Counted from the first letter of the stretch, positions 10,259 to 63,946 are shown. The stretch is DNA of 64,000 bases from an uncultured virus (IMG/VR IMGVR_UViG_3300037091_000258) (IMGVR_UViG_3300037091_000258), one strand, 5' to 3'. Made by a program: numbers and translations. The notes: generated from the letters alone by a model not told the origin.

Positions 10259-10611
10259 AATTAAGTAGAGTTCTTAAAGAAGCATTAGAACAAGAAATTC
10301 GAAAAGGCCATATTGCATTAGCGCCCTTTCCATATTCAGACAGAGATGAATCTAAAGTTCGACCCTGTTTAGTGTTAGCCAAGAAAGGTGATGATATTCT
10401 GTGTGCTTATATGAGCAGTAAGCTGGAGCGCGAAGGTGTTCTAATAAAGTCGGTAGATTTGAGCTGGAGTGAATTGAAAGATCCAACTGCATTGATTCGA
10501 CCAGACAAACTTGCTACTATAGACGTAAAACGAATAGAAAAAATAGTAGGCCACCTAATAGAGCCTAAACGAAAAGAAGTGGTCAACCGCATAAACAATC
10601 TAATACAATGA
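10255..10611 (+). CDS. mazF: PemK/MazF-family endoribonuclease with N-terminal propeptide-like extension
   Basis: KGHIALAPFPYSD...KVRPCLVLA...IRPDKLATID..RIEKIVGHL; no antitoxin adjacent. Confidence 0.85.
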   Translation: MKLSRVLKEALEQEIRKGHIALAPFPYSDRDESKVRPCLVLAKKGDDILCAYMSSKLEREGVLIKSVDLSWSELKDPTALIRPDKLATIDVKRIEKIVGHLIEPKRKEVVNRINNLIQ

Positions 10612-10949
10612 AAGAGCCTGAAAAAATACTTGGTGGACTTTATTTGAGTACGTGGTTTAACACGGAAGGGCTCTTCGTCTGTGTGAAAATAAATCAATAC
10701 AAAGGAATAGCTAGTGTTAGCTTTCAATACACGAAAACAAAAAAACCTGATTCTGTGGGCGGCTTCAAGCCAATCTGGCCACAAAGTTTAACAGACCATT
10801 TTAAAGCTATGAAATGGGCTCCGTCTTACCTTCCATCCGTTGGTATAGAGTGGGTCGATGTAGAGTTGGCCACTCCATCAAGCGCTAAAGATATCATAAA
10901 CAAAATTGATAAGAGAAATTTTATCATAGACCTTTTCAAATATGAATGA
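10608..10949 (+). CDS. hypothetical protein, C-terminal 'IF-helix' family
   Basis: ends KRNFIIDLFKYE. Confidence 0.65.
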   Translation: MKEPEKILGGLYLSTWFNTEGLFVCVKINQYKGIASVSFQYTKTKKPDSVGGFKPIWPQSLTDHFKAMKWAPSYLPSVGIEWVDVELATPSSAKDIINKIDKRNFIIDLFKYE

Positions 10950-10958
10950 AATAATAGG

Positions 10959-10993
10959 CAAGCCCACTAATCTTTAGATTGAGGATAGTTCAC
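10959..10993 (+). mobile_element. degenerate IS200/IS605 (tnpB) right-end remnant
   Basis: CAAGCCCAC-TAATCTTTAGATT-GAGGATAGTTCAC: hairpin with terminal TAGTTCAC resembling tnpB element right ends; no tnpA or tnpB nearby. Confidence 0.55.
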
Positions 10994-11001
10994 TACTAGC
11001 C

Positions 11002-11019
11002 TCGACAGTTCTATATACT
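11002..11019 (+). promoter_or_regulatory. putative early promoter TCGACA-N6-TATACT, leaderless
   Basis: same spacing as four other copies; ATG 7 nt downstream. Confidence 0.7.
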
Positions 11020-11026
11020 ATATTAA

Positions 11027-11524
11027 ATGGGCGATTCAAAACGCTTTGATTTATTTGCAGAGTATATTGCTCGCAACTTTCCTGTTTCAAAATATAAGCG
11101 TGTAGCTGATATTGCTGGTGGCCAAGGTTACCTACAGCAAGCTCTCCGTAAGTTAAGCTATGATGTCACTACGTTTGATAAGCGCCATAAACATGTTAAG
11201 AGCAACAAGATTCAATACAAGTTCAAGTATTTCGACTCTAGTATAAAGGACGACTATGATCTCTTAGTGGGAATGCATCCAGACGAAGCGACTGACATTA
11301 TCATAGCTGAAGCTATTAAAAGGAACATTCCCTTTGTAGTTGTCCCTTGCTGCATTAAACCAACTGTCACGACATTCAAAGGTCAACAGGACTACAAAGC
11401 ATGGGTCAATCATCTCAAGTTTTTTGCTATGCGACAAGGATATCACGTAGAGGAATACCAACTGAAAATGGCCGGAAAAAATATTCTTCTAAAAGGTTCG
11501 CCTAAATCTGCTTCACGGCGCTGA
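11027..11524 (+). CDS. class I SAM-dependent methyltransferase-like protein
   Basis: VADIAGGQG motif I; GMHPDEAT and VVPCC motifs. Confidence 0.8.
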   Translation: MGDSKRFDLFAEYIARNFPVSKYKRVADIAGGQGYLQQALRKLSYDVTTFDKRHKHVKSNKIQYKFKYFDSSIKDDYDLLVGMHPDEATDIIIAEAIKRNIPFVVVPCCIKPTVTTFKGQQDYKAWVNHLKFFAMRQGYHVEEYQLKMAGKNILLKGSPKSASRR

Positions 11525-11530
11525 GAAGTT

Positions 11531-11548
11531 TCGAACGCGGCATATATT
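11531..11548 (+). promoter_or_regulatory. putative early promoter variant TCGAAC-N6-TATATT
   Basis: same geometry as the TCGACA class, upstream of an AGGAGG RBS. Confidence 0.55.
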
Positions 11549-11587
11549 AAGGCAAAGAGATTCACCATCAACCAATAGGAGGTAAAG

Positions 11588-12019
11588 ATGGACGACACCA
11601 AGAAGAAGACGACTCCGGCTCCGGTTGCAGAGCAGACCGATTCAACTCCGGCTGCGGCCTCCGCCGCCCCTGTAGTCGCCGCCCCCAAGAAGGCATCCCC
11701 CGCAAAGAAGCCAGTCGGCACCAAGCCCACCCAGGGCACGAAGGGCACCAAGCCCACGAAGTCGACCGGTGACAAGCCGAAGGCCCCGAAGGCTCCCAAG
11801 GCCCCCGTGGCCCCGAAGACTCCCCGGGTGAAGAAGTCCGCCGAGGACAAGAGACTCGCTCGCCGGGCCAGGGCCAAGAACCGACGGGTCAAGGCGAAGG
11901 CTGCCAAGCTCCACATTTCCGAAGCCGAAGTCCTGAAGCGCATGGCCGAACGGAAGACCAATGCCGCGGCACGGAAGGCCGAGAAGGCCACCAAGATGGC
12001 CGCCAAGAAATCGGCCTAG
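11588..12019 (+). CDS. histone H1-like basic K/A/P-rich DNA-binding protein
   Basis: PKAPKAPKAP and KKA repeats; strong RBS; very GC-rich codons. Confidence 0.7.
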   Translation: MDDTKKKTTPAPVAEQTDSTPAAASAAPVVAAPKKASPAKKPVGTKPTQGTKGTKPTKSTGDKPKAPKAPKAPVAPKTPRVKKSAEDKRLARRARAKNRRVKAKAAKLHISEAEVLKRMAERKTNAAARKAEKATKMAAKKSA

Positions 12020-12035
12020 CTCCATCATCCTGATC

Positions 12036-12069
12036 ACTGAGGCTGCCTGGGTATTTCGGCAGCCTCAGT
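12036..12069 (+). other. 12-bp perfect hairpin (possible terminator or RNA stability element)
   Basis: ACTGAGGCTGCC-N10-GGCAGCCTCAGT; no U-tract. Confidence 0.6.
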
Positions 12070-12087
12070 CGCGTGTAAAGGGAAATA

Positions 12088-12267
12088 ATGGCTACCAAGG
12101 AAGAAGTCTTGGCAATGCTCAAGTGGAAACCAAATCCTGAGTACGTTTGCTTAGACTGTGGTAATACTTCTGATTTTCAAGCAATTCAGGCTGACTACGA
12201 TCTTCAGCTAGAATGTCTAACTTGTGGGAGTAAGAGAGTAACGGAAAAACAACAGCTTCGACAGTGA
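12088..12267 (+). CDS. small zinc-ribbon protein (not in ORF track)
   Basis: MATKEEVLAML...CLDCG...CLTCGSKRV, 59 aa. Confidence 0.7.
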   Translation: MATKEEVLAMLKWKPNPEYVCLDCGNTSDFQAIQADYDLQLECLTCGSKRVTEKQQLRQ

Positions 12268-12275
12268 TATATTAT
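12258..12275 (+). promoter_or_regulatory. putative early promoter TCGACA-N6-TATTAT
   Basis: conserved motif upstream of an AGGAGG RBS. Confidence 0.7.
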
Positions 12276-12297
12276 AAAGCATCAGGAGGAACCTGCA

Positions 12298-12873
12298 ATG
12301 GCTTTCGGTAGAAGAAGTCGGATAACTGGGGATGAGGCGGTAGTCGCCCAGTCCACCAGCAGCAAGCTTGGCGAGGAAATGCAGTGGTTCTATGATCAGG
12401 TCAGGACCTTCCGAGGCAAGGTGACCGATGAAGCTATTGCAAAGGTTGAGGCGGAAATCGAGGAAAGGCACATTTGCCACCTGGTCGATATCTGTACTCT
12501 CTTCGGCTGGGCAAAGGGAACTCACACAGAGCTTCGCAATAAACTGTCTCACCTGTCCTATGTAATACTCATGAACAATAACGGCCAGGCAGATACAGCA
12601 ACTATCCTCTTCTCCGCTATGAAGAGGGGTCTCAAGGATGACTACAAAGACCCAGTTGACTTGGTCCTATCCAAGAAAGAGAGCCGGAAGGCCAGGAAGC
12701 TCAGGAAGTCCCTCGAGAAAAACGACATTGACCTTGCCAAGAAACTCAGACTGCCCAAGACTGACGACGCCAAGGCGGCTTCTAGGAAGAAGAGGCAGGA
12801 AATTCGGAAGGCTGCTAAGGCTGCTGGACTTTCTACAGCCGACTACAAAGCGAAGATAGAGAAGGCAAGCTAA
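12298..12873 (+). CDS. hypothetical protein with basic C-terminal tail
   Basis: 191 aa; AGGAGG RBS. Confidence 0.75.
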   Translation: MAFGRRSRITGDEAVVAQSTSSKLGEEMQWFYDQVRTFRGKVTDEAIAKVEAEIEERHICHLVDICTLFGWAKGTHTELRNKLSHLSYVILMNNNGQADTATILFSAMKRGLKDDYKDPVDLVLSKKESRKARKLRKSLEKNDIDLAKKLRLPKTDDAKAASRKKRQEIRKAAKAAGLSTADYKAKIEKAS

Positions 12874-12875
12874 AA

Positions 12876-13112
12876 ATGATCTGGTTCATTCTAACCATAT
12901 TTCTCACCTGGTGGCTGATCGGATTCACCGGAATTGCTTTTTGGTGGATGGGAGAATTCGGCGACCTCGAAGGATATGTCAACATGTCAATCGCGTTCGG
13001 ATTGATAACTGGCATATTCTCTTGGCTCATTGGTATTTTCATTCACGAGCCGTGGAACTGGTATCATCCGTGGAGGTATGATCACCGTAAGCCGTTCTGG
13101 ATAAATGACTGA
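12876..13112 (+). CDS. small membrane protein
   Basis: two hydrophobic segments. Confidence 0.65.
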   Translation: MIWFILTIFLTWWLIGFTGIAFWWMGEFGDLEGYVNMSIAFGLITGIFSWLIGIFIHEPWNWYHPWRYDHRKPFWIND

Positions 13113-13123
13113 ATACATTTACG

Positions 13124-13891
13124 GTGAAGCTCTGCCTACTTCAAGCCAAAGCTAGACTTCTACGAAAAAGGAATGAGTCAATGATCGAACGAACCATTGA
13201 ATATATCCAAGACGACGAGAAGGCAACACTTCATATCATCGAGCGGCTCGCCGAATACTACGACGACGACAAAAAACATCTGAAAGAAATCAGTCTCATA
13301 GTAGACAATCAATTCAGTGGCGATCATAGAGGCTATTGGCCAAACGGCTCTATCAAGTTCCGGCATCATTACACTCACGGCGTCTTTCATGGGGCCTACT
13401 ATGAATACGACGAGAACGGCAAAATCATTACACGACTTTTCTATTGTAATGGCGAACTGTCTAATTCGCCGAATGCAAACAAGCCTATCACAATCAAAAC
13501 TATCAACCAGTATGGCCTTCAGGAAATGTTGGAATGGCTCAAGCACGCCAAGAAGCCATTCGACTATTTGCCTGGAGGTTTCAAGGTTCACACCAACTCC
13601 AATCGGCTAAAGCTTTTCCGCCAAACTCAAACATGCGTAGCCTGTGGAATCAGAGGTGATCACTTCCAACTCAATTGGACAAAGAACGACGTCATTCCTC
13701 ACTTGAATATGTACGCTACCAAAAACGGAGCCTCTATTCTGATGACAAGAGATCATATCGAACCGAAGTCATTAGGTGGCGGTAACGGTTTGGCTAACTC
13801 TCAAGTCATGTGCTGCCATTGTAATAGTAAGAAGGGGAACAAAAGAGATCACGAGCTAGCTCAGGGTTTTTGGAAAGTAAAAGCAAGTTAA
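13124..13891 (+). CDS. HNH endonuclease with MORN-variant repeats
   Basis: YWPNGSIK...HG.Y.EYDENGK repeats; CVACG...MTRDHIEPKSLGG...N.QVMCCHCNSKKG. Confidence 0.8.
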   Translation: MKLCLLQAKARLLRKRNESMIERTIEYIQDDEKATLHIIERLAEYYDDDKKHLKEISLIVDNQFSGDHRGYWPNGSIKFRHHYTHGVFHGAYYEYDENGKIITRLFYCNGELSNSPNANKPITIKTINQYGLQEMLEWLKHAKKPFDYLPGGFKVHTNSNRLKLFRQTQTCVACGIRGDHFQLNWTKNDVIPHLNMYATKNGASILMTRDHIEPKSLGGGNGLANSQVMCCHCNSKKGNKRDHELAQGFWKVKAS

Positions 13892-13929
13892 TAATAAATG
13901 AGACATAAAAAAATGTCAAGGAGAATTTC

Positions 13930-14919
13930 ATGAGTTTGGGTTTTACAATTGCAATTGTTCTTTGGTTTCTTGCCTTTGGTTTTATAGGCTATCTAATCGG
14001 TAATTCAAAAAAGCAACCGATCCTTGGTCTTGTGTTGGGTTTTCTTTTGGGGCCGATTGGGATTGCTATCATTCTGCTTCTTAAATCAAAAGCGGCGCCT
14101 ACTACAAGCGGAGGCAAGGCTACGCTTGAATTTACTCATAACGTTTCACCAACAAGTATCAAGACAGCAGCAAGAACGCTAGCAGCACCAGCGAAAGTAG
14201 CTGCCGAATCTGTTGCTGTAATAGATCCGAATAGCGGAATGAATATTGTCAATAATGATTTTCAAGCTGCGTATGATGCTCTGGATCAATATATGACAAC
14301 AAATCAAACGGCCACTGTCGAATATCTTACGCCCTCAGAGTTTACAATCAAGACCTATGGAATAGACTTCTATGGCTCAGCTGGTAATAGCATTTTATTT
14401 GGAAATACTGATCAATCAATTGATTTTATTGATGCCCCAACATCTATTACATCAGATATAAAATCCGACACTTATATTTGCTTTGAATTTGATTTAACCC
14501 AAGGAGGAGAAATTAAATTTGGTGGAAGTAACATTGTCACTACTTTTAAAGACCTCCTTTCAAATTTCATAAATAGCGATTTGTTTGCTGTTATTGGTTA
14601 CACTTCATGGCCGACAGATGATCCATATCTTGTACCAGATAATATCACAACTTTCGCTTGGGCAAGCGATACGACACCACTTAGCTATCATAGACCAAGC
14701 GATCCGAATGGACATCTACCATTACTTCTTGGTAACAACAATAGTTTCCCACTTCCAATTGATGCTGTAGCAAACAACTATACACTGACACTTAATTGGG
14801 ATCTCGCCAATATCATTGCGCACTATAACATTAACGCAAAGGATTATTATATTTTGAACAAAGATTTCATGGATAGGATGACTGTCACAGTTTTAGCAAC
14901 TGCGATAGCGGCACAATGA
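13930..14919 (+). CDS. membrane-anchored protein
   Basis: N-terminal two-TM element (G..LGFLLGPIG) followed by a soluble domain. Confidence 0.7.
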   Translation: MSLGFTIAIVLWFLAFGFIGYLIGNSKKQPILGLVLGFLLGPIGIAIILLLKSKAAPTTSGGKATLEFTHNVSPTSIKTAARTLAAPAKVAAESVAVIDPNSGMNIVNNDFQAAYDALDQYMTTNQTATVEYLTPSEFTIKTYGIDFYGSAGNSILFGNTDQSIDFIDAPTSITSDIKSDTYICFEFDLTQGGEIKFGGSNIVTTFKDLLSNFINSDLFAVIGYTSWPTDDPYLVPDNITTFAWASDTTPLSYHRPSDPNGHLPLLLGNNNSFPLPIDAVANNYTLTLNWDLANIIAHYNINAKDYYILNKDFMDRMTVTVLATAIAAQ

Positions 14920-15287
14920 GTAAAAAAGAACCAAAAGACCCAGTGAAATGGAATGGCTTCAATTACATGGAGCTGAAAGATTATGTGGGGCCGGAAGTCC
15001 GGCTCCATCCTTTTCTTTACGGAGATAAAATAGATCTTGACAAAGTAGTCATTGAAGGTTTCATCGTCGAGCTTCACAACATAATTACAAAGACTGTTAC
15101 ACAGGATAATGGAGAGGCTATCTCTCCACCAACTGAATTGGAACTTAAAAAAGTCACAGTCTCGAAAAAGAAGGGTGTGAACCGAAGAGTAGAAATTGAA
15201 TTTGCTCTTCCCGTTCAATCATACAAGCAGCATACGGTAGAAGAAGAGGCTTTAGATGACGACGACGGCGACCCATGCTCGATATAA
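14916..15287 (+). CDS. hypothetical protein
   Basis: 123 aa; ATGA overlap. Confidence 0.6.
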   Translation: MSKKEPKDPVKWNGFNYMELKDYVGPEVRLHPFLYGDKIDLDKVVIEGFIVELHNIITKTVTQDNGEAISPPTELELKKVTVSKKKGVNRRVEIEFALPVQSYKQHTVEEEALDDDDGDPCSI

Positions 15288-16113
15288 TCTTTACAGGCAA
15301 TTGCACATCTCAAGAAAGAAGGGTGTTCGTCTAGGTCAAGAAGCACTAGACATTTGTACCAATGGGTACTACATGGCACCTTCTGGCAACGAAGTTGATT
15401 TCACTTCCTTGCTTCTTCACGCTATGGAAGCGACATTATCCTATCCGGAAGACCTAGAACTCTTACCGCCAAAGAATAACGGATTCACTACTACCTATGA
15501 AGTCCGCAACGAAACTACTCTCGCTGCAACCCGTAGATTAAACACTAAAGGCTTTCATCCAGTCGCTTTGAATATGGCATCAGCACACCGACCAGGAGGC
15601 GGCTTCCTTTCTGGAGCCGCCGCCCAAGAAGAATACTTGTGTCGGTCTTCCGCTCTTTATCCATGTCTTCTGGATAACCCAATGTATTCTTTGCCACGCG
15701 ATCCATTCGCTACTGATTATACAATTTATTCTCCCGACGTTCCTATATTTAGGAACGATGAGGGAAGGCTGTTGGAAGCAGTAGAGCTTTATTCTGTCCT
15801 CACATGTGCTGCGGTCCACGCAAGAGTCATTGGCAGAGACATGCCAGAAAGAGTTTCTGAAATCAAGCCCGTTATGGAAAAGCGTATCAAAAGACTTCTC
15901 AACATCGCAGCTATCCAAAACCATAACTCTCTAGTTCTCGGAGCTTGGGGATGTGGCGTTTTTGAAAATAGCGGAGAGCTGATTGCTTCTCTTTTCAAGA
16001 AAGCTCTCAGGCACGAATTTAAGGGCGTCTTCAGTAAGGTAGTCTTTGCTATTGCTGATTGGTCTATAGAACAGAAATTCATCGAGCCATTTATCAAAGC
16101 TTTTGCAAAATGA
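15256..16113 (+). CDS. bacterial-type poly(ADP-ribose) glycohydrolase / TIGR02452 macrodomain protein
   Basis: LNMASAHRPGGGFLSGAAAQEEYLCRSS; YSPDVPIFR; LVLGAWGCGVF. Confidence 0.9.
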   Translation: MTTTATHARYNLYRQLHISRKKGVRLGQEALDICTNGYYMAPSGNEVDFTSLLLHAMEATLSYPEDLELLPPKNNGFTTTYEVRNETTLAATRRLNTKGFHPVALNMASAHRPGGGFLSGAAAQEEYLCRSSALYPCLLDNPMYSLPRDPFATDYTIYSPDVPIFRNDEGRLLEAVELYSVLTCAAVHARVIGRDMPERVSEIKPVMEKRIKRLLNIAAIQNHNSLVLGAWGCGVFENSGELIASLFKKALRHEFKGVFSKVVFAIADWSIEQKFIEPFIKAFAK

Positions 16114-16577
16114 AAAAGCCTCTATTCCTTTTGCTATTTTTTAGTGTCGCCCAACTTTTCGCTGATCCCATTATCGGCTCTCGGCAACTGACAATCGATG
16201 TTGCTTATGCATACGTCCTAACTCACATGACTTATGTCAGCGACACTGAATTGTATAAGGTGCACGAGGGAAGCTATGCTCCCTCACAAGAAGAGGTAGT
16301 CGCTCACAACTTCAAAGGTGACTGTAAAGCCTATGCCGTTTTATTTGCATATATTGTCCATCGTATGTTGCCAGATGCAAAGATCGAATTCGTAGCTGTA
16401 TATCAAAAGCATCACACTATGGGACACATGGAAGTTGATGTAGATGGAACGCGATATTTCTGCGCCAAAGGCTACGCCATTGAAGTTCACAAGTGGAGCT
16501 ATGATGAATATATGAACATAGTCCACTCAACGCATGATTTAGAAGTACCTGAATCAGATCTAATTAAAATACAATAA
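16110..16577 (+). CDS. secreted transglutaminase-like cysteine protease
   Basis: signal peptide MKKPLFLLLFFSVAQLFA; GDCKAYA...GHM...D catalytic-like triad. Confidence 0.65.
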   Translation: MKKPLFLLLFFSVAQLFADPIIGSRQLTIDVAYAYVLTHMTYVSDTELYKVHEGSYAPSQEEVVAHNFKGDCKAYAVLFAYIVHRMLPDAKIEFVAVYQKHHTMGHMEVDVDGTRYFCAKGYAIEVHKWSYDEYMNIVHSTHDLEVPESDLIKIQ

Positions 16578-16580
16578 GCA

Positions 16581-16598
16581 TCGACAGTGATTTATTAT
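16581..16598 (+). promoter_or_regulatory. putative early promoter TCGACA-N6-TATTAT
   Basis: conserved motif upstream of a GGAGG RBS. Confidence 0.7.
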
Positions 16599-16615
16599 GT
16601 TCTTGTGGAGGACAC

Positions 16616-17017
16616 ATGAACCTTGAGATTCTTTCTGAAGACGTGAAAGAGTTTTGTCGAAGGGCTTCATCCAAGCAGGAGCTGGGAATGTCTTTCATCC
16701 AAGCAAACACAGAAGTCCTCAACGAGGTGCTCCCGAACTATGAAGCCTTTTGGCAGTTGGTCATCTTGGCCGTCATCTGCCGTCGCGGCGATTTTAGCGG
16801 CGACATTTTCATGGATTACTTCCTAGACCACACTGACCAGAAAATCCACAAATTTGTATGGCAAGAGTTGGCTATCAATCGTCAGAATGGACTTGGTATT
16901 GGCAAGATGCACTTGAGCCACAAAGAGTGGAATGAAGAAGTCAAAGAGCTCATGGACATCATGGCCCAGAAAGACAAACGGACCGCTACCACTTGGCCCC
17001 TGACTTCAGAGGCATAA
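16616..17017 (+). CDS. hypothetical protein
   Basis: 133 aa; GGAGG RBS. Confidence 0.7.
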   Translation: MNLEILSEDVKEFCRRASSKQELGMSFIQANTEVLNEVLPNYEAFWQLVILAVICRRGDFSGDIFMDYFLDHTDQKIHKFVWQELAINRQNGLGIGKMHLSHKEWNEEVKELMDIMAQKDKRTATTWPLTSEA

Positions 17018-17035
17018 AATTCCCAGGGAAAAGTT

Positions 17036-17053
17036 TCGACAGAATGGTATTAT
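17036..17053 (+). promoter_or_regulatory. putative early promoter TCGACA-N6-TATTAT
   Basis: conserved motif upstream of an AGGAGG RBS. Confidence 0.7.
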
Positions 17054-17076
17054 ATTCTATCAGGAGGAAGAAGGAA

Positions 17077-17676
17077 ATGGCGAAGAACTTCATGGATCAG
17101 GCAAAGGCAGCGGCTTCTACGGCAAAACCGGCCGCGAAGAAATCTTCAGTTCCGGTCATCACCGACGCCCCGGCCGATGTCACGGCGGCAGTCAAGGCCT
17201 ATGTCAAGGCAGTGGATTCCAAGAAGGAAGCCGAAGCCGAAATGGCCAACCAGTTCACGGTGGTCGATGAATTCGTCACCAAGGTCCAGGACGAGAAGGC
17301 TTTCAAGGGTTCCTTCTCCAAGTCCTACAAGGTTCAGCTTGACACCGGAGACACGGTTCTCTACTCCAGCCAGAATCGCTTCAAGATCAACCCTGAGGCC
17401 GAAGAGGACATCAAGGCTCTCCTCGGAGACAACTTCGGGGCTATGGTCCAGGAGAAGCTCACGGTCACGGTCAAGGAAGAGGTTTTCGAGGACGAGGCTC
17501 TGATGAAGGAGCTCGGCGAACTCCTCGGGGACAACTTCTCCAAGTTCTTCAACTCGAAGATGGAGCTCAAGGTCAAAGACAACTTCGACGAGAAGATCTT
17601 CGCAGTGGCCAAGACCGCCAAGAAGCTGGCCGAGGTCAGGACCTTCATCGAACCCTGGAAGCACACCCTCAAGTAG
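17077..17676 (+). CDS. hypothetical, probably highly expressed early protein
   Basis: start reassigned to the ATG after AGGAGGAAGAAGGA; strongly C/G-ending codons. Confidence 0.75.
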   Translation: MAKNFMDQAKAAASTAKPAAKKSSVPVITDAPADVTAAVKAYVKAVDSKKEAEAEMANQFTVVDEFVTKVQDEKAFKGSFSKSYKVQLDTGDTVLYSSQNRFKINPEAEEDIKALLGDNFGAMVQEKLTVTVKEEVFEDEALMKELGELLGDNFSKFFNSKMELKVKDNFDEKIFAVAKTAKKLAEVRTFIEPWKHTLK

Positions 17677-17704
17677 GGCATACTTCCTACCAGGACAATC
17701 CAAG

Positions 17705-17731
17705 ATGGCCGGTTATCCGGCCATTTCTTTT
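17705..17731 (+). terminator. intrinsic terminator
   Basis: ATGGCCGG-TTAT-CCGGCCAT-TTCTTTT. Confidence 0.8.
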
Positions 17732-17747
17732 GCGTAAAGGATCACAT

Positions 17748-18056
17748 ATGACTGAAGAAAACATTGGTATCGTAAGAGAGTTGAGGACGCACCAGGAGTG
17801 CACTCGACAGGATGCTAAGGTTGTGATCAAGATCTTGAAGGATAAGAACGTTACTGTCATGGATAAATTAGCCATGCTATTCGCGTTTTCTACCAACGAT
17901 AGATTTCTTGAGACTTTCCTTGATCGGAAACCAGAAGTCGACTATTGGATTATAAAAAATCTGAAAGATCTAAACGAAGGTAACGAAAACTACGAAGAAG
18001 ATAGGTCATTACTATACAAAGCAATTGCCAATGAATGGCTGAAGGAGACGACATGA
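17748..18056 (+). CDS. hypothetical protein
   Basis: AAGGA RBS before ATG 17748. Confidence 0.65.
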   Translation: MTEENIGIVRELRTHQECTRQDAKVVIKILKDKNVTVMDKLAMLFAFSTNDRFLETFLDRKPEVDYWIIKNLKDLNEGNENYEEDRSLLYKAIANEWLKETT

Positions 18057-18235
18057 AATGTGCTTGTGGTTTCAAAGGCAAGTTCGTTCCACTTGGGAAT
18101 GTCAACTCAGCTAATTTGGGAATGTACTACATTCTCAAGCCTAAAATGGAATCCAAGTATGAAGGCCTGGTAGAGCTTTACGTCTGCCCCAAATGCAAGA
18201 CCGTTAAAGCTCTAACTGACAAGGAGGCTAAATGA
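18053..18235 (+). CDS. small zinc-binding protein
   Basis: MKCACG...YVCPKC. Confidence 0.65.
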   Translation: MKCACGFKGKFVPLGNVNSANLGMYYILKPKMESKYEGLVELYVCPKCKTVKALTDKEAK

Positions 18236-18414
18236 TTCTCTACCACGACATTCCTGTACAGATCACAGATTCTTTCGTCAATAAGCTCAACGGCGAAATC
18301 TGTGTTAAGATTTCTACTGCTAATGAAAATCGTTGGTCAAACGGTTGGGTCCGAGGCAGCGATCTTACTTTTGTCGAGGGCGAAACTCTTGAATCTACTT
18401 TAAGGAGACTTTAA
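18232..18414 (+). CDS. hypothetical protein
   Basis: AAGGAGG RBS. Confidence 0.6.
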   Translation: MILYHDIPVQITDSFVNKLNGEICVKISTANENRWSNGWVRGSDLTFVEGETLESTLRRL

Positions 18415-18854
18415 TGACAGCAAAAGAAATCGTAGACTTCGTCGTAGGTTGGCTTGAAGCTGGCCAAGCAAAGCGAACTCAGACGTTTTCTGAGGTAGCT
18501 CTCACCGGACAGTTCGGCACAGAAAGCCATTACAACCAGGATGATGTCGAGAATCTCTATCAGCGCCTTGTGAAGCTGGACGAAATGGATGCAGTTTTGG
18601 TTATCAAGTGCATCTTAGAAAAGCTGAACTTCGCCGATCCTTCTATCCTCGACTCTGTCATGTCTTCGCACAACAGTCACTTTGATAAGACAGTCATCAA
18701 GATACTGAGCCAATACCAGCCGCTTTCACCGCCTACTCCTGTTTTGCTTGGGCGAATCCGGCGGTCCAAAAAGAATCCGCCAGTTGATAACCCTATGCGC
18801 AGCATCTTCGATCAACGGTGGGCAGAGGTTCAAGCCGCTTCGACAGTATCTTAG
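18414..18854 (+). CDS. hypothetical protein
   Basis: AAGGAG RBS; TAATG coupling. Confidence 0.65.
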   Translation: MTAKEIVDFVVGWLEAGQAKRTQTFSEVALTGQFGTESHYNQDDVENLYQRLVKLDEMDAVLVIKCILEKLNFADPSILDSVMSSHNSHFDKTVIKILSQYQPLSPPTPVLLGRIRRSKKNPPVDNPMRSIFDQRWAEVQAASTVS

Positions 18855-18857
18855 AAT
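18840..18857 (+). promoter_or_regulatory. putative early promoter TCGACA-N6-TAGAAT, leaderless
   Basis: conserved motif; ATG 6 nt downstream; no SD. Confidence 0.7.
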
Positions 18858-18863
18858 GATCGT

Positions 18864-19472
18864 ATGGAGATCACTACCTTTTCTTACTTCTATCCCGAAA
18901 AGCCGACCCTGATTTCAAAGGATCAGGATCTTTTCAAAAACATCATCAAGTCGGGTCAATATGTAGCGGAGCGGAAGTATAACGGAATGAGACTTCAACT
19001 CCACTATCTCAACGGAAAGTTTCAGTGCTGGAATCGCCATCATGAAGATCTGAGCCAGACGATCAAGTTCTGCCCCGAAGGTGCTTTGGCGGGAGCTCTG
19101 GCTGCTCTTCCTCTCAAAGGCTATTGTCTTTTTGATGGAGAGCTCCGCCAGAACAAGACCAAGGGTATCAAACAGAAGATGATGCTTTTCGATGTCTTCA
19201 TCTGGCAAAACGAAATGCTTCTTGGAGTTCCCTTCGCTGAGAGGCGGCAGATCCTGGCCGACTTGATTCAGGTCGATGGCGACCCGCTCGGTATTCCCTT
19301 CCAGTTCGAGGGCGACTTCGAAAAGGTTTTCAACCAGGTCGTCGTGGACGAAGAGATCGAGGGCTTGGTCATGAAGAAGAAACAAGGCCAGTTCAAAATC
19401 AGCCGGAAGAACCCAGTTGACTCCACCTGGATGTATAAGGTTCGGAAGGCTAACAACAAATATCGATTTTAG
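18864..19472 (+). CDS. minimal ATP-dependent DNA ligase (adenylation domain only)
   Basis: ERKYNGMR (KxNG), LFDGEL, LFDV, EGLVMK and WMYKVR motifs; no OB domain. Confidence 0.8.
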   Translation: MEITTFSYFYPEKPTLISKDQDLFKNIIKSGQYVAERKYNGMRLQLHYLNGKFQCWNRHHEDLSQTIKFCPEGALAGALAALPLKGYCLFDGELRQNKTKGIKQKMMLFDVFIWQNEMLLGVPFAERRQILADLIQVDGDPLGIPFQFEGDFEKVFNQVVVDEEIEGLVMKKKQGQFKISRKNPVDSTWMYKVRKANNKYRF

Positions 19473-19479
19473 GAGCAAC

Positions 19480-19848
19480 ATGGACAAGGTAGTTTTGCAT
19501 AACAAAGCAGTTAGCTTCTTTCTCCGCTCGTATTGGAGATATCAGAAGATTTCTGACTTTGTTGTAGAAAAAGACGGTGAGAAGTTCACCGTAATAACAA
19601 ATTTCCCAAAAAACAAAAACACTGGCAATATCTCTTTTAATCCAAATAGGATTGAGCAGATGTTGAGAGATGATTGCATAGGAGCAATCATTGTCCATTG
19701 CTTTGGATCAGACAACTTTGAGGTCTTTGGCATTACAACTATCAATGATCTTGCTAAAGGTATTGCTAAAACGTGGCAGCCAAACAAGTACGGTTACAAT
19801 GATTACAAGCTGGCTGCTATTCGCCACCTTAACATTCAGGCGGCTTAA
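19480..19848 (+). CDS. hypothetical protein, possible PD-(D/E)xK fold
   Basis: SDFVVEKDG pattern; AGGAG RBS. Confidence 0.5.
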   Translation: MDKVVLHNKAVSFFLRSYWRYQKISDFVVEKDGEKFTVITNFPKNKNTGNISFNPNRIEQMLRDDCIGAIIVHCFGSDNFEVFGITTINDLAKGIAKTWQPNKYGYNDYKLAAIRHLNIQAA

Positions 19849-19858
19849 GGAGAATTAC

Positions 19859-20164
19859 ATGGCAAAGAAGAAAACAACGAAGAGACCCAAGAGCTATTAC
19901 CAGAAGGTAGTAGACAAGATCCGGAAAGATCTTTTGTCCAACGTGAAAGGTATGCAGTCAGAATCAACTTCCGACGAAGAGCACGCCAGCTACGACGAAA
20001 CCATCAGCAAAATCAAAGCAGCAAAGACAATCGGCGCTCTTTCAAACGTTGCCCAAGAAATGGCTTGGGACTACGAGTCCTTCATTGGCCTCTTGCTCGA
20101 CTCTCTCGGTGGGAAAGAGCCGGTTGATTCGGCAATGTTTGACGCTTTCGGTTGGGACACATGA
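19859..20164 (+). CDS. hypothetical protein
   Basis: AAGGAG RBS before ATG 19859. Confidence 0.65.
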   Translation: MAKKKTTKRPKSYYQKVVDKIRKDLLSNVKGMQSESTSDEEHASYDETISKIKAAKTIGALSNVAQEMAWDYESFIGLLLDSLGGKEPVDSAMFDAFGWDT

Positions 20165-20596: not shown

Positions 20597-20890
20597 ATGA
20601 AGGTCAACTTGGACATTCGAGACGACAAAGAGCTTCGTGACATGGTCAAGGACATGATCCGCGGTCAGGTCAAGAGCGTTATGCGGACCGACATCGACGA
20701 GATCATGAAGGAAGTGGTCGGCGACAAGACGGCCAAGCTATCCGACGTCATGGCTAAAGAGATCACCAAGGTCGTTCGGGACTTCTTCCAGAGCGGCTAT
20801 ACTCGCGGCCCTGGTTATGCCATGATCGAGAAAGAGATCAAGGAACAGGTCGCTCTCACTCTCAAGAAGGTCATCCAGGAAGCCCGCTAA
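20597..20890 (+). CDS. hypothetical protein
   Basis: AAAGGAG RBS; GC-rich codons. Confidence 0.7.
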   Translation: MKVNLDIRDDKELRDMVKDMIRGQVKSVMRTDIDEIMKEVVGDKTAKLSDVMAKEITKVVRDFFQSGYTRGPGYAMIEKEIKEQVALTLKKVIQEAR

Positions 20891-21156
20891 TGCAGGATCG
20901 GTCAAACGACATAGAAGTTAGCGGCGTCAAGATCAAAGACGAATGCCTGCTCATGGTGCAAAAAGCCATGAGCGGGTTTCCGTCCATCCGTTTCCTCTAC
21001 AATCCTATCAAGTATTTTCGAACTCCTTACTATGAGATTGCCTATGGCGGCAAGAGCAATGATGTACGAGCATTTGAAGTTGCCATCCAGGACTTCTACT
21101 GGAACCCACCTGAGCCACCCAAAAGAACCTTCTTCCAAAAGCTTTTCAACATTTAA
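20890..21156 (+). CDS. hypothetical protein
   Basis: TAATG coupling. Confidence 0.6.
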   Translation: MQDRSNDIEVSGVKIKDECLLMVQKAMSGFPSIRFLYNPIKYFRTPYYEIAYGGKSNDVRAFEVAIQDFYWNPPEPPKRTFFQKLFNI

Positions 21157-51846: not shown

Positions 51847-52088
51847 AAATCAATGTCAAAAACATTATAAGCGATTGGGAATACGAGATTCATAAGTGGA
51901 AGGGATTTGATATATCGCACAGTCCAAGACCGAAATGGGAATATAGTCTTAGTCGAGATGGTTATGAAGTTTTTGAATTTAGTCGGGGTGGGTATTTAAC
52001 ATTAGAAAGTATAGTCGAAAATCTTGAAAAAGCCTTAGATGAAGAGAAGAACAAAATAGCAATGATCCGAGCTTGCTTCGAGAACTAA
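51843..52088 (+). CDS. hypothetical protein, C-terminal 'IF-helix' family
   Basis: KIAMIRACFEN. Confidence 0.55.
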   Translation: MKINVKNIISDWEYEIHKWKGFDISHSPRPKWEYSLSRDGYEVFEFSRGGYLTLESIVENLEKALDEEKNKIAMIRACFEN

Positions 52089-52099
52089 AGGTTTTAAAA

Positions 52100-53055: not shown

Positions 53056-53271
53056 ATGACGGACCTAACTGGATTAGTGTCTAACTTAAGCAACGAACTT
53101 GGTGAAGCATCTGAAGAAAAACCGCCGGCAAAATTAGTTTTAACGGCTAAAAAAATAGTGACATCAGTTCTAAGCAATCCAGATTTTAGGATGACTACTA
53201 GCGATAAAAAGCTAGAGAAACTCGTTGAAAATTATATCAAAAAGCTAGAAGCTTATTTAAAAACTCTTTAG
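53056..53271 (+). CDS. putative head-associated protein, paralogue of 53527
   Basis: DLTGLVSNLSNELGE...KPPA..V..AK...YIKKLEAYL. Confidence 0.65.
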   Translation: MTDLTGLVSNLSNELGEASEEKPPAKLVLTAKKIVTSVLSNPDFRMTTSDKKLEKLVENYIKKLEAYLKTL

Positions 53272-53526: not shown

Positions 53527-53763
53527 ATGGTAGATTTAGATAAGTTCGTACTTGATTTAAATAACGAACTAAATGAAAAATTTGATTTGGCTACTACAAA
53601 AAAACCAGCAATGGTCAAAGTGGCCAAAATATTTTTAGATAACGTACTAACCAGCACATTAGAAAATATACAAGGGCACCGATATCACCATATGGGCCAG
53701 GAAGAAGCTAAAGTAACTACTGACTATATTAAAAAATTGAAAACTTATCTAGGCGCTCTATAA
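53527..53763 (+). CDS. putative head-associated protein, paralogue of 53056
   Basis: DLDKFVLDLNNELNE...KKPA.VKVAK...YIKKLKTYL. Confidence 0.65.
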   Translation: MVDLDKFVLDLNNELNEKFDLATTKKPAMVKVAKIFLDNVLTSTLENIQGHRYHHMGQEEAKVTTDYIKKLKTYLGAL

Positions 53764-54677: not shown

Positions 54678-57053
54678 GTGGATCGAAACAGGGAGATACA
54701 AAAGAAAAGCGAAATTATCCAGTCCTATTTCAACAAACTTGGAATCTCCAAGATTCGAGATTTAGCAACTATTGATCCTAATAAAAATAACGATGCTTTT
54801 CAGGCCTTTGGATCTTATCGAACAAATGTCGAATCATTTACTTCAATAGATCAAAGTAGAATGATGCGATATAGACAATATGAGCAGATGTGTATAACTC
54901 TAGATACTAAAATCGATTTATTAGATGGTAGATCAATTTCGCTTTCAGATTTAATAAAAGAATATGAGGCTGGTAAAGAAAACTGGACATATTCAATAGA
55001 CACTAACAATGGTAACAAAGCAGTTTCAGGTAAGATTGAGTGGGCAGGAATAACAAGAAAAAACGTTGAGTTGGTTGAAGTTTTTATAGACAATAAATCA
55101 ATTCGTTGCACTCCTGATCATAAATTCATGTTAGATGATGGTACTTACAAAGAAGCCAAAGATTTACAACCCAACGAACTTCTAATGTCGAAAGACCAAA
55201 ATCATAGAGTAATAAAAGTTGAAGAACTTAGCGTTACAGAAGATACTGGCTGTATTACAGTAGCTGAATATCACAACTTTAGTGTATTAGACTCTATATA
55301 CATAAAAAATTGTTATGTTCCAGAACTAAACGGTGGTATAGAGCTTTATGCTGATGATAGCTCTTTATATAACGAACAAGACAAGACTATAAACATAGAA
55401 TCAGATAATCAAGAAGTAGTAGACGCTTTAGACAATTTATTTTTTAAATCGCTAGATCTTAATTCAGTGTTATGGCACATCGTATATAACACTTGTAAAT
55501 ATGGTGATTCATTCTACGAAGTAATTCCTGACAACTTTAAGAACCCCAGACGAATAAAATATTTAAGATTCATACCTCCTCAATTTGTTGGACGAAAAGA
55601 AAGAGACGGAAACTTACTAGAGTTCATAGTAAAAGTTCCAGAAGATGTGACGGTGGGATCGACAAGTTTTACATCTACGCAATCTCAAGAAATAAGTCTT
55701 AAACCTTGGCAAATAGTTCACTTCAAGCTGGATGACAAAGAGTTTGAACCCTATGGTAAATCAGTATTGGAGCCTGGACGTTTAGCATTCAAACAAATGA
55801 AATTGATAGAAGACGCAATGCTAATTTATAGGATCTCAAGGGCGCCTGAGAGGAGGGTTTTTAACATACCAGTTGGTAATTTGCCATATAGAGAATCAAT
55901 GGCAAGAGTAGCTGACTTCCAGCAGAGGTATAGGAAAACTCCTTGGATAGACCCTCAAACTGGAGAAATAAGCTATAAAGAGAATCCCTTAAGTATTAAC
56001 GATGACTTCTTCCTACCTAAGAGACCAGATGGCTCAGGAGTAACTATTGAATATCTACCTGGTGGCCAACAATTAGGTGAGATTGACGACGTTCGGTATT
56101 TCAAAGAAAAAATCCTACGAACCATGAGAATTCCCATAGCTTATTTGACTGGGGAGCTAACAGGTGATGTAGCTAAGACTTCTTTGGCTGCAATGGACGT
56201 AAGATTTGCTAAAACTATTGAAAGAGTTCAAAAACAAATATTACGTGGTCTAGAAAAACTGGCCACTATTGAATTAGCTTTTAAGAGATTTAGCTTAGAT
56301 GACCTACAATCATTTGTGCTTAAACTAACTCCTGCTTCGAAAATTTATGAATTACAGAACTTGGAAATGATGACACAAAGAATTAATGTCATACAAGCTG
56401 CCATGAATTTGAAGGACGAAGCGGGTAATTTATACCTACCTACCGAGTGGATGTACAAGAATATTAGTAAATTCACAGACCAAGAAATATCTGTTATCAA
56501 ACTAATGCAACAATCTGAAGCTGCTCACAAGGCGGAGATCGCCGCAGCAGCGGCTCAAGCTACAGCAGGGGCAGAAGGCGGCGGAGCACCTGGCGGTGGT
56601 TTAACTACAGAAGTACCAGGTGGTGGATTAGGTGGCGGAGCACCTGGTGGTGGATTAGAGGCTGGAGCTTTACCAGGAGCTGAAGCAGGCGCTGTACCTC
56701 CTGGTGGAGAAATCGCTCCTGCTCCAGGGGCCGCAGGAGTCGGTGGACCGGCCCCCGAGAATACCCCCGCTCCTACAGGTGGAGGTGCTGAATTGGCAGT
56801 AGCTGGACAAATACTAAATATAGCGAGTGAACAGTTCTTACTTGAAAATGAGAATGATATTAAGAAACTGATAAAATATGTGAAAGAGCAGCAAGAAAAT
56901 CAAAAGATAACTAAAGATAAATCTGTAACTAAAGTCAGAGGAAAAATGTACGAAAACCATTTCAACCAACTCTTTATTGCTGGCGAACTCAAAGGATTGA
57001 TTCGACGCAAAAATGGAGAGAACAATAACAAAAAGGAAATGTTAGAGGACTAG
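54678..57053 (+). CDS. portal protein (T4 gp20-like) with mini-intein
   Basis: CKYGDSF, QIVHF, PYGKSVLE, KLIEDAMLIYRISRAPERRVFNIPVGNLP, DDFFLP, LPGG.QLGEIDDV.YF. Confidence 0.95.
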   Translation: MDRNREIQKKSEIIQSYFNKLGISKIRDLATIDPNKNNDAFQAFGSYRTNVESFTSIDQSRMMRYRQYEQMCITLDTKIDLLDGRSISLSDLIKEYEAGKENWTYSIDTNNGNKAVSGKIEWAGITRKNVELVEVFIDNKSIRCTPDHKFMLDDGTYKEAKDLQPNELLMSKDQNHRVIKVEELSVTEDTGCITVAEYHNFSVLDSIYIKNCYVPELNGGIELYADDSSLYNEQDKTINIESDNQEVVDALDNLFFKSLDLNSVLWHIVYNTCKYGDSFYEVIPDNFKNPRRIKYLRFIPPQFVGRKERDGNLLEFIVKVPEDVTVGSTSFTSTQSQEISLKPWQIVHFKLDDKEFEPYGKSVLEPGRLAFKQMKLIEDAMLIYRISRAPERRVFNIPVGNLPYRESMARVADFQQRYRKTPWIDPQTGEISYKENPLSINDDFFLPKRPDGSGVTIEYLPGGQQLGEIDDVRYFKEKILRTMRIPIAYLTGELTGDVAKTSLAAMDVRFAKTIERVQKQILRGLEKLATIELAFKRFSLDDLQSFVLKLTPASKIYELQNLEMMTQRINVIQAAMNLKDEAGNLYLPTEWMYKNISKFTDQEISVIKLMQQSEAAHKAEIAAAAAQATAGAEGGGAPGGGLTTEVPGGGLGGGAPGGGLEAGALPGAEAGAVPPGGEIAPAPGAAGVGGPAPENTPAPTGGGAELAVAGQILNIASEQFLLENENDIKKLIKYVKEQQENQKITKDKSVTKVRGKMYENHFNQLFIAGELKGLIRRKNGENNNKKEMLED
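54891..55310 (+). mobile_element. 140-aa mini-intein in the portal gene
   Basis: starts CITLDTKI, block B RCTPDHKF, ends YHNF....IYIKN followed by Cys+1; no endonuclease domain. Confidence 0.92.
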
Positions 57054-62112: not shown

Positions 62113-62138
62113 TTAGAGGATAACGATTTGAACAATTG

Positions 62139-62166
62139 GCCGTTGTAGCAATACAACGGCTTTTTT
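62139..62166 (+). terminator. intrinsic terminator after the major capsid gene
   Basis: GCCGTTGTA-GCAA-TACAACGGC-TTTTTT. Confidence 0.9.
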
Positions 62167-62189
62167 GTGTGAGGCATATTTTAAAATAT

Positions 62190-62996
62190 ATGGTGTACGA
62201 TATAGATGTCATAAAATACAAAGTAGAAAATATTGCACGACGAAAAGATTCAACAGCTTTACCTCAAATGATCATAGATGACAAAGTGTTACAAGCTCGT
62301 AAAGATAAAGTAAAATTTTTATGTCAAGATTGTGATAAAGAGGTTGTGATTCACATTGAGCGATTTCTTAGAACTAAGAACGAGGAAAAGACGTGTTGGT
62401 ATTGCAGTTTACATAAGGCTAGAAAAGATAACCCTTTGCGATTTCGTAGCCCAGAAGCTATAGAAAAGATGAGACAATCTATTCGTGATCGTGGTGTTTT
62501 TATAGACAAATATGAAGAGCGAATTTGTCCTACTTGTAAAAATAAATTTACTATAAGAGTTGCTCGATTTTATAAGAAGCGAAAATTTTGTTCTGAAAAA
62601 TGTCGAAGAGAAGCTTTCGCTATTGCGGGCTCCAAACAAGGCCATCACGGTTATAAAGGAATGTTGGCTGTTCCGATGCGCGACACTAAGCCCGAAAAGT
62701 TATTTAAAGCCTATTTAGATTCTAAAGGTATCTCCTATACATTCCAGAAAAAAGTTGGGCCTTTTATGTTTGACTTTGGACTGAGCAATGGAATACTGAT
62801 CGAAATAGATGGTGATTATTGGCACTACAATATAAACAATCCTTTAATAACAGCTAAACCTATTAATAGTAAACAAGCGAAGAAAGTAGCCCGGGATAAA
62901 GAGAAAGATGAGTATTGTAAAAAGCACAGTATAGTTTTAGTAAGAATCTGGGAATCAGAATTAAAATCAATGAAAATCCTTCAAGATTTCATTTAG
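62190..62996 (+). CDS. zinc-finger plus Vsr/DUF559-like homing endonuclease
   Basis: CPTC...KFCSEKC; TKPE...FDF....ILIEIDGDYWH...D..KD......LVRIWESE. Confidence 0.8.
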   Translation: MVYDIDVIKYKVENIARRKDSTALPQMIIDDKVLQARKDKVKFLCQDCDKEVVIHIERFLRTKNEEKTCWYCSLHKARKDNPLRFRSPEAIEKMRQSIRDRGVFIDKYEERICPTCKNKFTIRVARFYKKRKFCSEKCRREAFAIAGSKQGHHGYKGMLAVPMRDTKPEKLFKAYLDSKGISYTFQKKVGPFMFDFGLSNGILIEIDGDYWHYNINNPLITAKPINSKQAKKVARDKEKDEYCKKHSIVLVRIWESELKSMKILQDFI

Positions 62997-63071
62997 CTCC
63001 CATATTTATAGGTGAGATTTTCAATCTTGAAAAGTAGGATTAATTTATAAAATCTCAAGGCGGTGATATGA

Positions 63072-63374
63072 ATGAATGTTCCGTTAAAGGGTGCTTCTGG
63101 CAAAACATATACTTTTGGTGCATATCAGATCAACGGCAATTGGCCTGATTCTGGGGGTGTTTATGTTTATGCCGACTCACGCAATAAACCAATTTAAACT
63201 GATTCTTTTAAAGAAAGAATAGACGATCATACAAGAGATGGTAAACTAGAGGAGTCTCTCGAACAGGGCTGTGATAGAATTTTAGCTTATGTTGATGAGA
63301 ATGAAACTTCTAGAATTGCGGCTGAAAAAGATCTCATTAAAAATTATCCAGATCTTTTGAATGAAGTGCTTTAA
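63072..63374 (+). pseudogene. small GIY-YIG nuclease with an in-frame stop where the YIG motif should be
   Basis: GASGKTY.F...GGVYVY...KPI*TDSFKERIDDH...R..AEKDLI..Y...LN; TAA at 63195-63197. Confidence 0.7.
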
Positions 63375-63378
63375 GATT

Positions 63379-63405
63379 AGCTGTGGCGTGAGCCACAGCT
63401 TTTTT
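63379..63405 (+). terminator. intrinsic terminator
   Basis: AGCTGTGGC-GTGA-GCCACAGCT-TTTTT. Confidence 0.9.
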
Positions 63406-63409
63406 GTTG

Positions 63410-63419
63410 CAAGATAAAT
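63410..63419 (+). promoter_or_regulatory. putative late promoter, leaderless
   Basis: CAAGATAAAT directly after a terminator; ATG at 63423. Confidence 0.7.
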
Positions 63420-63422
63420 CAA

Positions 63423-63650
63423 ATGATATATTATCAGCCTCGACACATATCTAATGAAACTCAACCTATTGAATATTATGAATCGTGGCTTATACCCAAA
63501 TTTTCGTTACCAACTCTCATCATAAATGCTAGCAATAAGAAAAGAACTATAATCAAGATTTATCAAAACTCTTCGGCGAAATTACCAGATATGGAAGCAG
63601 CAAAACCGGAAGAACTATATAAACTGATTAGGTTGACGTGGTTGACATGA
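63423..63650 (+). CDS. hypothetical protein, C-terminal 'IF-helix' family
   Basis: LYKLIRLTWL. Confidence 0.55.
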   Translation: MIYYQPRHISNETQPIEYYESWLIPKFSLPTLIINASNKKRTIIKIYQNSSAKLPDMEAAKPEELYKLIRLTWLT

Positions 63651-63946
63651 AAGATCTTTTTGATTATCCCAAACATGCCTTCAAAGAATATGAGGGCCGA
63701 TCGGCTATAAACATGTTTGGCGATCTAAAGTTAGAAAGGGGTAATCTTTACCTGCTTCTAAAATTCATTGAGGCTCGAGCATCATTAATGAGTAGTCCAG
63801 CCTATGCTATTTTTGAATGTAGGATATATAACATTCATCGTAAGAAAGCTTATATAGATAAAGTGAGTTTTATCATAAGAGGTCAAGGCTATAAATGGCT
63901 TACAAACAAATCAGCTCGAGAATTTGTTGGGAAAATATTTGAATGA
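63647..63946 (+). CDS. hypothetical protein, C-terminal 'IF-helix' family
   Basis: LERGNLY; ends AREFVGKIFE. Confidence 0.6.
   Translation: MKDLFDYPKHAFKEYEGRSAINMFGDLKLERGNLYLLLKFIEARASLMSSPAYAIFECRIYNIHRKKAYIDKVSFIIRGQGYKWLTNKSAREFVGKIFE

Follow-up and report, generated by a model that had tools for sequence, protein, structure and literature searches.

A C-terminal helix motif shared by dissimilar small proteins of a T4-like phage clade, possibly an address label on variable accessory proteins

The many small orphan genes of large phages cannot be sorted by any sequence method, and a tag shared by many of them would give a handle on the whole set. The question is raised here by a 64,000-nucleotide stretch of DNA from an uncultured virus (IMG/VR IMGVR_UViG_3300037091_000258), which was analysed at its full length and is called the window below; it represents 64 kb of a genome of about 310 kb. 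An earlier note had listed 17 small open reading frames (ORFs) of this window, named here by their start coordinates, whose bodies could not be aligned by eye and which end in nearly the same peptide, [RKH]-x-hydrophobic-[IVF]-[KRS]-x-[ILV]-[FWY]. It interpreted this peptide as a helix by which otherwise different proteins dock onto one common partner. Is the shared tail real, and if so, is it a portable handle or an ordinary part of a fold?

With regard to the first question, all 17 listed ORFs are open frames on the + strand, encode 54-141 amino acids and bear the quoted motif near their end, 0-17 residues before the stop (median 5). Nine fit the strict pattern, five fit its hydrophobic positions (3, 4, 7 and 8) only and three (37621, 51843 and 63423) are loose fits. 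An additional ORF at 20890-21156, which the earlier note had not listed, fits the hydrophobic positions and brings the set to 18 members. About a quarter of the small genes of the window encode tail-bearing proteins. Of 115 protein tails, 10 show the strict pattern (9 among the 64 small proteins), whereas it occurs at none of 17,417 body positions, for a shuffle expectation of 0.14 when whole proteins are shuffled and 0.22 when the last 30 residues are. Among matches to the hydrophobic positions alone, the basic residues are also present in 10/19 in tails and in 0/20 in bodies.

As the pattern had been fitted to these very tails, a seed-free 8-mer motif finder was applied to the C-terminal 25 residues of each of 63 small proteins, with 40 shuffles for reference. 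This blind search of C-termini, which the earlier note had proposed, returned the same motif as its top result with a score of 187.5 (z = 5.1), compared with 167.0 +/- 4.0 (maximum 179.9) for the shuffles, 166.7 for N-termini, 172.3 for protein middles and 166.3 for the segment from -50 to -25. A leave-one-out position weight matrix (PWM) exceeded the 99% null threshold in 9/115 tails vs 2/522 body blocks, and graded about seven members as firm, five as borderline and five as weak.

The motif was then compared across the clade. For this, small ORFs were called in every genome with a single automatic tool, and those with a strict tail were counted. The window holds eight among 67 small ORFs (shuffle mean 0.12) and 14 related contigs hold 13 among 373 (shuffle mean 0.57), whereas none was found in T4 (35% G+C; 0/153, shuffle mean 0.28), in a Flavobacterium phage (34.5% G+C; 0/117, shuffle mean 0.15) or in a more distant phage (0/46, shuffle mean 0.03). 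Against these three control phages taken together (0/316), Fisher's test gives p = 6e-7 for the window and p = 3e-4 for the relatives. The absence of strict tails from the control phages indicates that the motif is not a general trait of small ORFs in AT-rich phages; it is commoner here than in shuffles and than in such ORFs, the two comparisons on which the earlier note had staked its claim. The tail motif is thus real, C-terminal and specific to this phage clade.

An AT-rich genome in which members usually overlap the start of the next gene could, in principle, produce such a pattern by chance, by composition or by the translation of a nucleotide signal such as a promoter, a ribosome site or a recombination site. 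We consider this explanation very improbable, given that the shuffles, the body positions and the three control phages yield close to nothing. Furthermore, synonymous codons differ throughout the motif among members, the distance from motif to stop varies from 0 to 17 codons, and promoter-like and terminator-like sites show no enrichment at 36-54 kb. As the codons under the motif vary, a signal at the level of the DNA was rejected, and selection acts on the peptide.

The tail comprises about 12 residues, with hydrophobic residues at positions 0, 3, 4, 7 and 8, a spacing that fits one face of a helix; a helix is also predicted in both of the AlphaFold2 (AF2) models described below. Across the 18 proteins, position 1 is basic in 14 and position 5 in 12, position 4 is Ile (11), Val (5) or Phe (2), and position 6 is often Ser (7) or Ala (3). 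Sixteen proteins have Ile, Leu or Val at position 7, and position 8 is mostly Phe (14), with Trp in two. Acidic residues are absent from positions 0, 1, 3, 4, 5, 7 and 8 in all 18, although they are frequent immediately before the motif. The first residue of the motif varies between residues 47 and 103 of the protein, and polarity is higher in the 15 residues preceding the helix than in the body (Kyte-Doolittle -0.54 vs -0.25, p = 0.027).

The bodies in front of this tail are indeed unalignable, as had been claimed. No pair of members is found by BLASTP at E <= 1, and helix-less bodies give the same mean Smith-Waterman z between members (0.11, n=153) as between members and non-members (0.11, n=144), with -0.01 for the eight adjacent member pairs. 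With jackhmmer, each member was linked to its own orthologues only. The claim that no described family can be recognised also held: no Pfam family matches a member at E <= 0.01, relaxed thresholds gave six chance-level matches only (E 0.04-0.09), and the best match in PHROGs has an E value of 0.053. A profile of 17 members searched against 1.84 billion representatives returned only five proteins, all of them the window's own or near-identical. A word-indexed search kept 8 of 199 candidates, two of which are orthologues from other samples. A metagenome scan with the terminase retrieved two loci, and scans with 38241 and 29819 retrieved nothing new.

Relatives of the phage provide a wider view of the tail. 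Contigs whose capsid protein is 62-89% identical to that of the window encode 29 distinct tail-bearing small proteins (32 rows, three of them duplicates). Four of these, from a relative with a 68% identical capsid protein, belong to the WG_beta_rep family (PF14903, E 1.6e-26 to 5.6e-37): their final eight residues fit all hydrophobic positions and the Lys at position 5, with Tyr at position 1. When the family profile was aligned with these four proteins by hhalign, only the last 13 columns aligned, and a tail-region search with a WG protein returned two paralogues. We rejected the possibility that the members themselves are degenerate WG repeats, since they have no WG match at E <= 10 and a WG-repeat hidden Markov model, built from the relative's proteins and used to rank member against non-member bodies, did not separate the two (p = 0.30). 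In the relative G002, the ORFs with the tail are grouped in two runs, each of four to five adjacent genes (L026 12057-15841 and L027 1873-3289), in which orphan bodies are mixed with WG-repeat proteins.

Around the terminase, the positions of tail-bearing genes can be followed between genomes. Members 47712, 49067 and 49492 have orthologues in relatives at 61-73% identity that keep the pattern. Members 51634 and 51843, in contrast, are missing after the terminase in relatives L002 and L003, and the slot in L002 is occupied by a different tail-bearing ORF of 87 amino acids. Judging from such comparisons, the tail ends differing orphan ORFs that occupy variable slots between conserved core genes. 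Both the WG-repeat proteins and this turnover are consistent with a constant tail on a variable body.

Nevertheless, an arrangement of this kind could also arise if the members were one or several hyper-divergent paralogue families, generated by tandem duplication and followed by divergence fast enough to erase body similarity, in which the helix is a packing element of the core and has no partner at all. Several results point in this direction and weigh against a freely exposed tag. The members are clustered in tandem, with eight adjacent pairs vs 2.9 expected (P = 0.001), and relative L002 carries, next to its orthologue of 49492 (70% identity), a tandem paralogue at 36% identity with the tail on both. 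A leave-one-out profile of 37 helix-less bodies placed ten of them in the top tenth of 194 sequences (3.7 expected; mean rank fraction 0.40), and in the MAFFT alignment a G-x-W column recurs, with two hydrophobic strands behind it. Taken together, the clustering, the paralogue pair and the profile signal argue for common descent, in which case the helix could be merely the slowest-evolving element of the core. Acidic residues before a helix and basic residues within it, moreover, stabilise any helix.

The structural models add to this. The AF2 model of 39247, built from an alignment of 37 sequences, has a mean predicted local distance difference test (pLDDT) of 59.5 and comprises strands 13-16, 23-33 and 39-49 and a helix at 72-88, separated by a poorly modelled stretch; three strands would be too little to fold without the helix, as far as a model of such low confidence can be trusted. 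Foldseek found nothing in the PDB at E <= 0.001 for this model. The neighbours of a low-confidence Atlas model of a member are small SH3-like barrels with template modelling (TM) scores of 0.50-0.63, all Atlas matches being below 0.9. The earlier note had assigned an SH3/KOW-like strand to the N-terminus of several members: the strings are present, and the models do no more than hint at the SH3-like fold. The AF2 model of a WG protein is far more confident (pLDDT 94.2, predicted TM score 0.83) and shows successive beta-hairpins that recall a portion of a propeller; against 48,161 chains it gave beta-propeller-like matches only, with Z <= 7.5, under the bar for trust. Its tail is a helix at 145-156 with a pLDDT of 81-87, which suggests that the helix packs on the body rather than projecting as a free tag.

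On the other side, pairwise similarity is nil even between neighbours, the leave-one-out profile of 17 bodies ranks members no better than non-members, and many of the bodies outside the top tenth lie near the bottom of the 37-sequence ranking. The same tail occurs on WG-repeat proteins with unrelated bodies, surface positions 1 and 5 are kept basic, and both the distance from body to helix and the polar stretch vary widely. Shared descent with a buried helix, the case in which the earlier note would have given up its claim, is the main rival, and we consider it somewhat less probable than the reading that follows.

The reading that we favour, with a confidence just short of even, is that the tail is a clade-specific portable C-terminal handle on a fast-changing set of accessory proteins. 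The WG-repeat proteins, bodies that are dissimilar even in adjacent members, the conserved basic residues on the surface and a connector that is more polar and varies in length speak for it, whereas the tandem clustering, the weak profile signal, the tiny size of some bodies and the confidently modelled WG helix speak for a structural role; both can be partly true. If the tail is a handle, the shared helix would bring each accessory protein to one common putative reader, either a groove on a protein or the inner face of the cell membrane, and what each protein does individually would depend on its variable body. New members seem to arise through local duplication and rapid divergence, and occasionally through the joining of the tail to another kind of body. 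Regarding the docking-tag interpretation of the earlier note, the unalignable bodies and the clade-specific motif selected as a peptide were borne out, and the tail on WG bodies adds to them; that the helix is exposed for binding, that there is a single reader and what the bodies do are parts that we infer.

Should the reader be the membrane, the tail would be an amphipathic helix that targets these proteins to the inner membrane during infection, a special case of a handle. It is short, lies at the extreme C-terminus, needs no protein partner and combines a hydrophobic face with flanking Arg and Lys. The mean net charge over 11 residues is +1.9 for members vs 0.0 for the best amphipathic 11-mers of non-member tails, and the mean hydrophobic moment of the member helix is 0.48; this comparison is not independent, because amphipathic, basic character defined the set. 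The C-terminal amphipathic helix of MinD is weak and needs higher valency to function, and a single helix of such length binds membranes weakly in this protein (PMC6803595). The preferences of the motif (Ile or Val at position 4, Phe at 8, a small residue at 6) are tighter than lipid binding by itself would require, and the bodies, judged by eye from their sequences, have no transmembrane or signal features. Taken by itself, membrane targeting seems unlikely, and it makes up a little under half of our confidence in a handle.

The tail nevertheless resembles that of MinD, FtsA and FlhG in being a short C-terminal amphipathic helix, here a predicted one, with a basic flank. The FlhG helix lies stored in a groove of FlhG itself and is set free later (PMC6803595), and storage of this kind would reconcile a confidently modelled helix with a role in targeting. 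MinD, FtsA and FlhG are, however, single conserved ATPases, whereas the helix of this clade is found on dozens of orphan proteins.

No description of the motif or of the family was found among the results of full-text literature searches. The nearest concept is the capsid targeting sequence (CTS) of T4, since the internal proteins of T-even phages are diverse and fast-evolving and share only a short tag, by which they are delivered to one place. In T4, the CTS is located at the N-terminus and the prohead protease cleaves it off. The tag of the window is, in contrast, C-terminal (0-17 residues from the end) and basic-amphipathic. As in the CTS set, in which diverse proteins have only the targeting tag in common (PMC3012670), the bodies are unrelated and a short shared tag is enriched; the phage of the window is likewise T4-like, with genes for a portal, a prohead protease and a Gp23-type capsid protein.

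A second possible parallel is the set of epitopes that bind the T4 sliding clamp. To our knowledge, no clamp has as many clients as the 18 or so small orphan proteins would represent. The motif of the window resembles these epitopes in its C-terminal position behind a variable linker, the polarity of which is modestly raised (p = 0.027). In T4, the unrelated proteins gp43, gp55 and gp33 carry short interchangeable C-terminal epitopes that follow a divergent linker of variable length and bind one hydrophobic patch of their common partner, and these are described as "hydrophobic and acidic" (PMC2988020). The motif of the window is hydrophobic and basic instead, without a single acidic residue at seven positions in 18 proteins, and this basic character excludes it from the clamp epitopes of the T4 type. 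No clamp gene is among the Pfam matches of the 64-kb window.

It is conceivable, though on balance doubtful, that uncultured T4-like phages of one clade possess a hitherto undescribed address label at the C-terminus, in the form of a short, basic and amphipathic helix with Phe at its end, and that they use it to route at least a quarter of their small, rapidly replaced accessory proteins, WG-repeat proteins included, to one reader, be it a groove of a phage or host protein, the interior of the prohead or a membrane. A single reader, if found, would place about 18 proteins, and probably many more in the genome of about 310 kb, in one pathway, and the helix could be of use both in searches and for targeting. 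Should its role be purely structural, it still defines a clade-specific and extremely fast-evolving family located in variable slots between core genes.

With regard to the individual members, all of which lie on the + strand, the first is 10608-10949 (113 amino acids), with hydrophobic positions only (motif at nucleotides 10914-10937, three residues before the stop). Its start overlaps by 4 nucleotides the stop of a MazF/PemK-like gene at 10255-10611 (Pfam E 9.4e-10), which itself overlaps a preceding gene for a protein of 646 amino acids. Member 10608 would be a candidate antitoxin of this MazF-like protein; a complex prediction with two copies of the MazF-like protein and 10608 gave a score of 0.00 in an uncontrolled run. 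The candidate added here, 20890-21156 (88 amino acids), carries its motif at 21124-21147, two residues before the stop. It is followed by 21169-21498 (109 amino acids), a strict member (motif 21442-21465) with the top leave-one-out PWM score. In public collections, 22524-22784 is given as 86 amino acids (the frame is open from 22353) with a strict motif at 22722-22745, and its orthologue from another sample retains the pattern.

Two overlapping members are found at 30737-30970 (77 amino acids, strict motif 30917-30940) and 30957-31244 (95 amino acids, motif 31203-31226); the latter has Pro at position 1 and an N-terminal strand of the K-V-G-D type. Three others follow one another from 37621 on. 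The first, 37621-37785 (54 amino acids), is a weak member with a GTG start and an uncertain gene call, in which the motif reaches the stop and Leu replaces the aromatic residue. The second, 37782-38003 (73 amino acids), has a strict motif at 37950-37973, and the third, 38000-38248 (82 amino acids), has hydrophobic positions only (38198-38221). The pair 39247-39516 (89 amino acids, motif 39472-39495) and 39516-39755 (79 amino acids, motif 39714-39737) is strict in both cases.

Near the terminase, 47712-48005 (97 amino acids) has a strict motif at 47928-47951, 17 residues before the stop, and its orthologue in relative L003 keeps the pattern at 61% identity. The longest member, 49067-49492 (141 amino acids), has an acidic/basic N-terminal extension, a strict motif at 49463-49486 and an orthologue in L003 at 73% identity; it is followed by 49492-49764 (90 amino acids), with a strict motif at 49723-49746. 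Two weak members are located at 51634-51846 (70 amino acids, TTG start, gene call uncertain; motif 51805-51828 with Pro at position 1) and 51843-52088 (81 amino acids, loose motif 52056-52079). The last two are 63423-63650 (75 amino acids), with a loose motif at 63618-63641 (Tyr at position 1, Thr at 7 and Trp at 8), a variant that also occurs on the WG-repeat proteins of a relative, and 63647-63946, a weak member of 99 amino acids (102 from a GTG at 63638), with its motif at 63917-63940, one residue before the stop.

The genomic setting of these genes agrees in part with what had been described. Coupling by overlap was seen as announced, the start of the member overlapping the upstream stop in 13/18. 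An association with an upstream AAGATAA was not recovered, since the heptamer lies <=20 nucleotides from the start in only 3/18. The heptamer is, as such, enriched in the window (38 copies vs 24.2 +/- 4.8, 32 of them on the + strand) and often lies 5-20 nucleotides before a start codon, for example at 4432, 21158, 23695, 30723, 37148, 45142, 52700 and 63411; in this phage, it might act in translation initiation or as a promoter. The T4 late-promoter octamer is not enriched (three copies vs 6.9 expected, all on the minus strand).

The 11-21 kb block had been called early and nearly devoid of members. The absence is clear (0/13 small ORFs vs 17/47 from 20.9 kb on, Fisher p = 0.012), and the label "early" found no support. 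The G+C content of 12000-20000 is 0.44-0.46 vs 0.35-0.37 further on, and this region encodes an HNH/MORN protein, PARG and a ligase-like gene, with zero tail-bearing ORFs; it may be a module of separate origin. After the terminase, 51843-52681 comprises tail-bearing ORFs and then an ORF of 202 amino acids, all three of which are missing from L002 and L003, and the two tail-bearing ORFs and the 202-amino-acid ORF may constitute one inserted cassette.

A second small family is present in the window. The paralogues 53056-53271 and 53527-53763 (36% identity, E 5.6e-6) share, with ORFs of relatives (L003 9993-11015), a different C-terminal helix, rich in Lys and Leu and with Leu as last residue.

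The assignment of the window to an uncultured T4-like phage is based on Pfam matches to an intein-containing T4-type portal (E 3.5e-79; Intein_splicing E 1.4e-10), a Gp23-type major capsid protein (E 7.2e-70), a prohead protease (E 1.3e-21) and a large terminase. Nearly all genes of the window are on the + strand, and auxiliary genes matched in Pfam include a two-piece Hsp70, PARG, a diacylglycerol kinase, DNA glycosylases and the MazF/PemK-like protein. The closest named terminase is that of a Flavobacterium phage (30.8% identity), all 2,569 matching records being below 60%, and no DNA near-identical to the window was found among named phages. Public contigs that carry proteins of the window reach a length of 310,676 bp. 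With 91.5 kb, the nearest record (G001) extends 29.5 kb further upstream, and no tail-bearing member was found in this extra part.

Three further observations concern genes that are interrupted or split. The portal gene that carries the intein lies at 54678-57053 in the window. The terminase has 630 amino acids in the window vs 996-999 amino acids, in single open frames, in two relatives (L002 1427-4417 and L003 6249-9248), and in query numbering the extra segment of the relatives falls between ~107 and ~58-103, which suggests that their terminase contains an intein that the window terminase lacks. The Hsp70 is encoded by two ORFs, 25373-25684 (profile positions 1-74) and 25882-27177 (positions 206-599), with a gap of 198 nucleotides and about 130 profile positions missing between them, which could reflect an intron, a deletion or a pseudogene. 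Finally, the 526-amino-acid protein encoded at 4443-6023 is duplicated downstream as the consecutive ORFs 6025-6384 and 6384-7619, which are 55% identical to it over 117 residues and 49% over 416 residues, respectively; these are probably tail-fibre-like paralogues, one of which is split.

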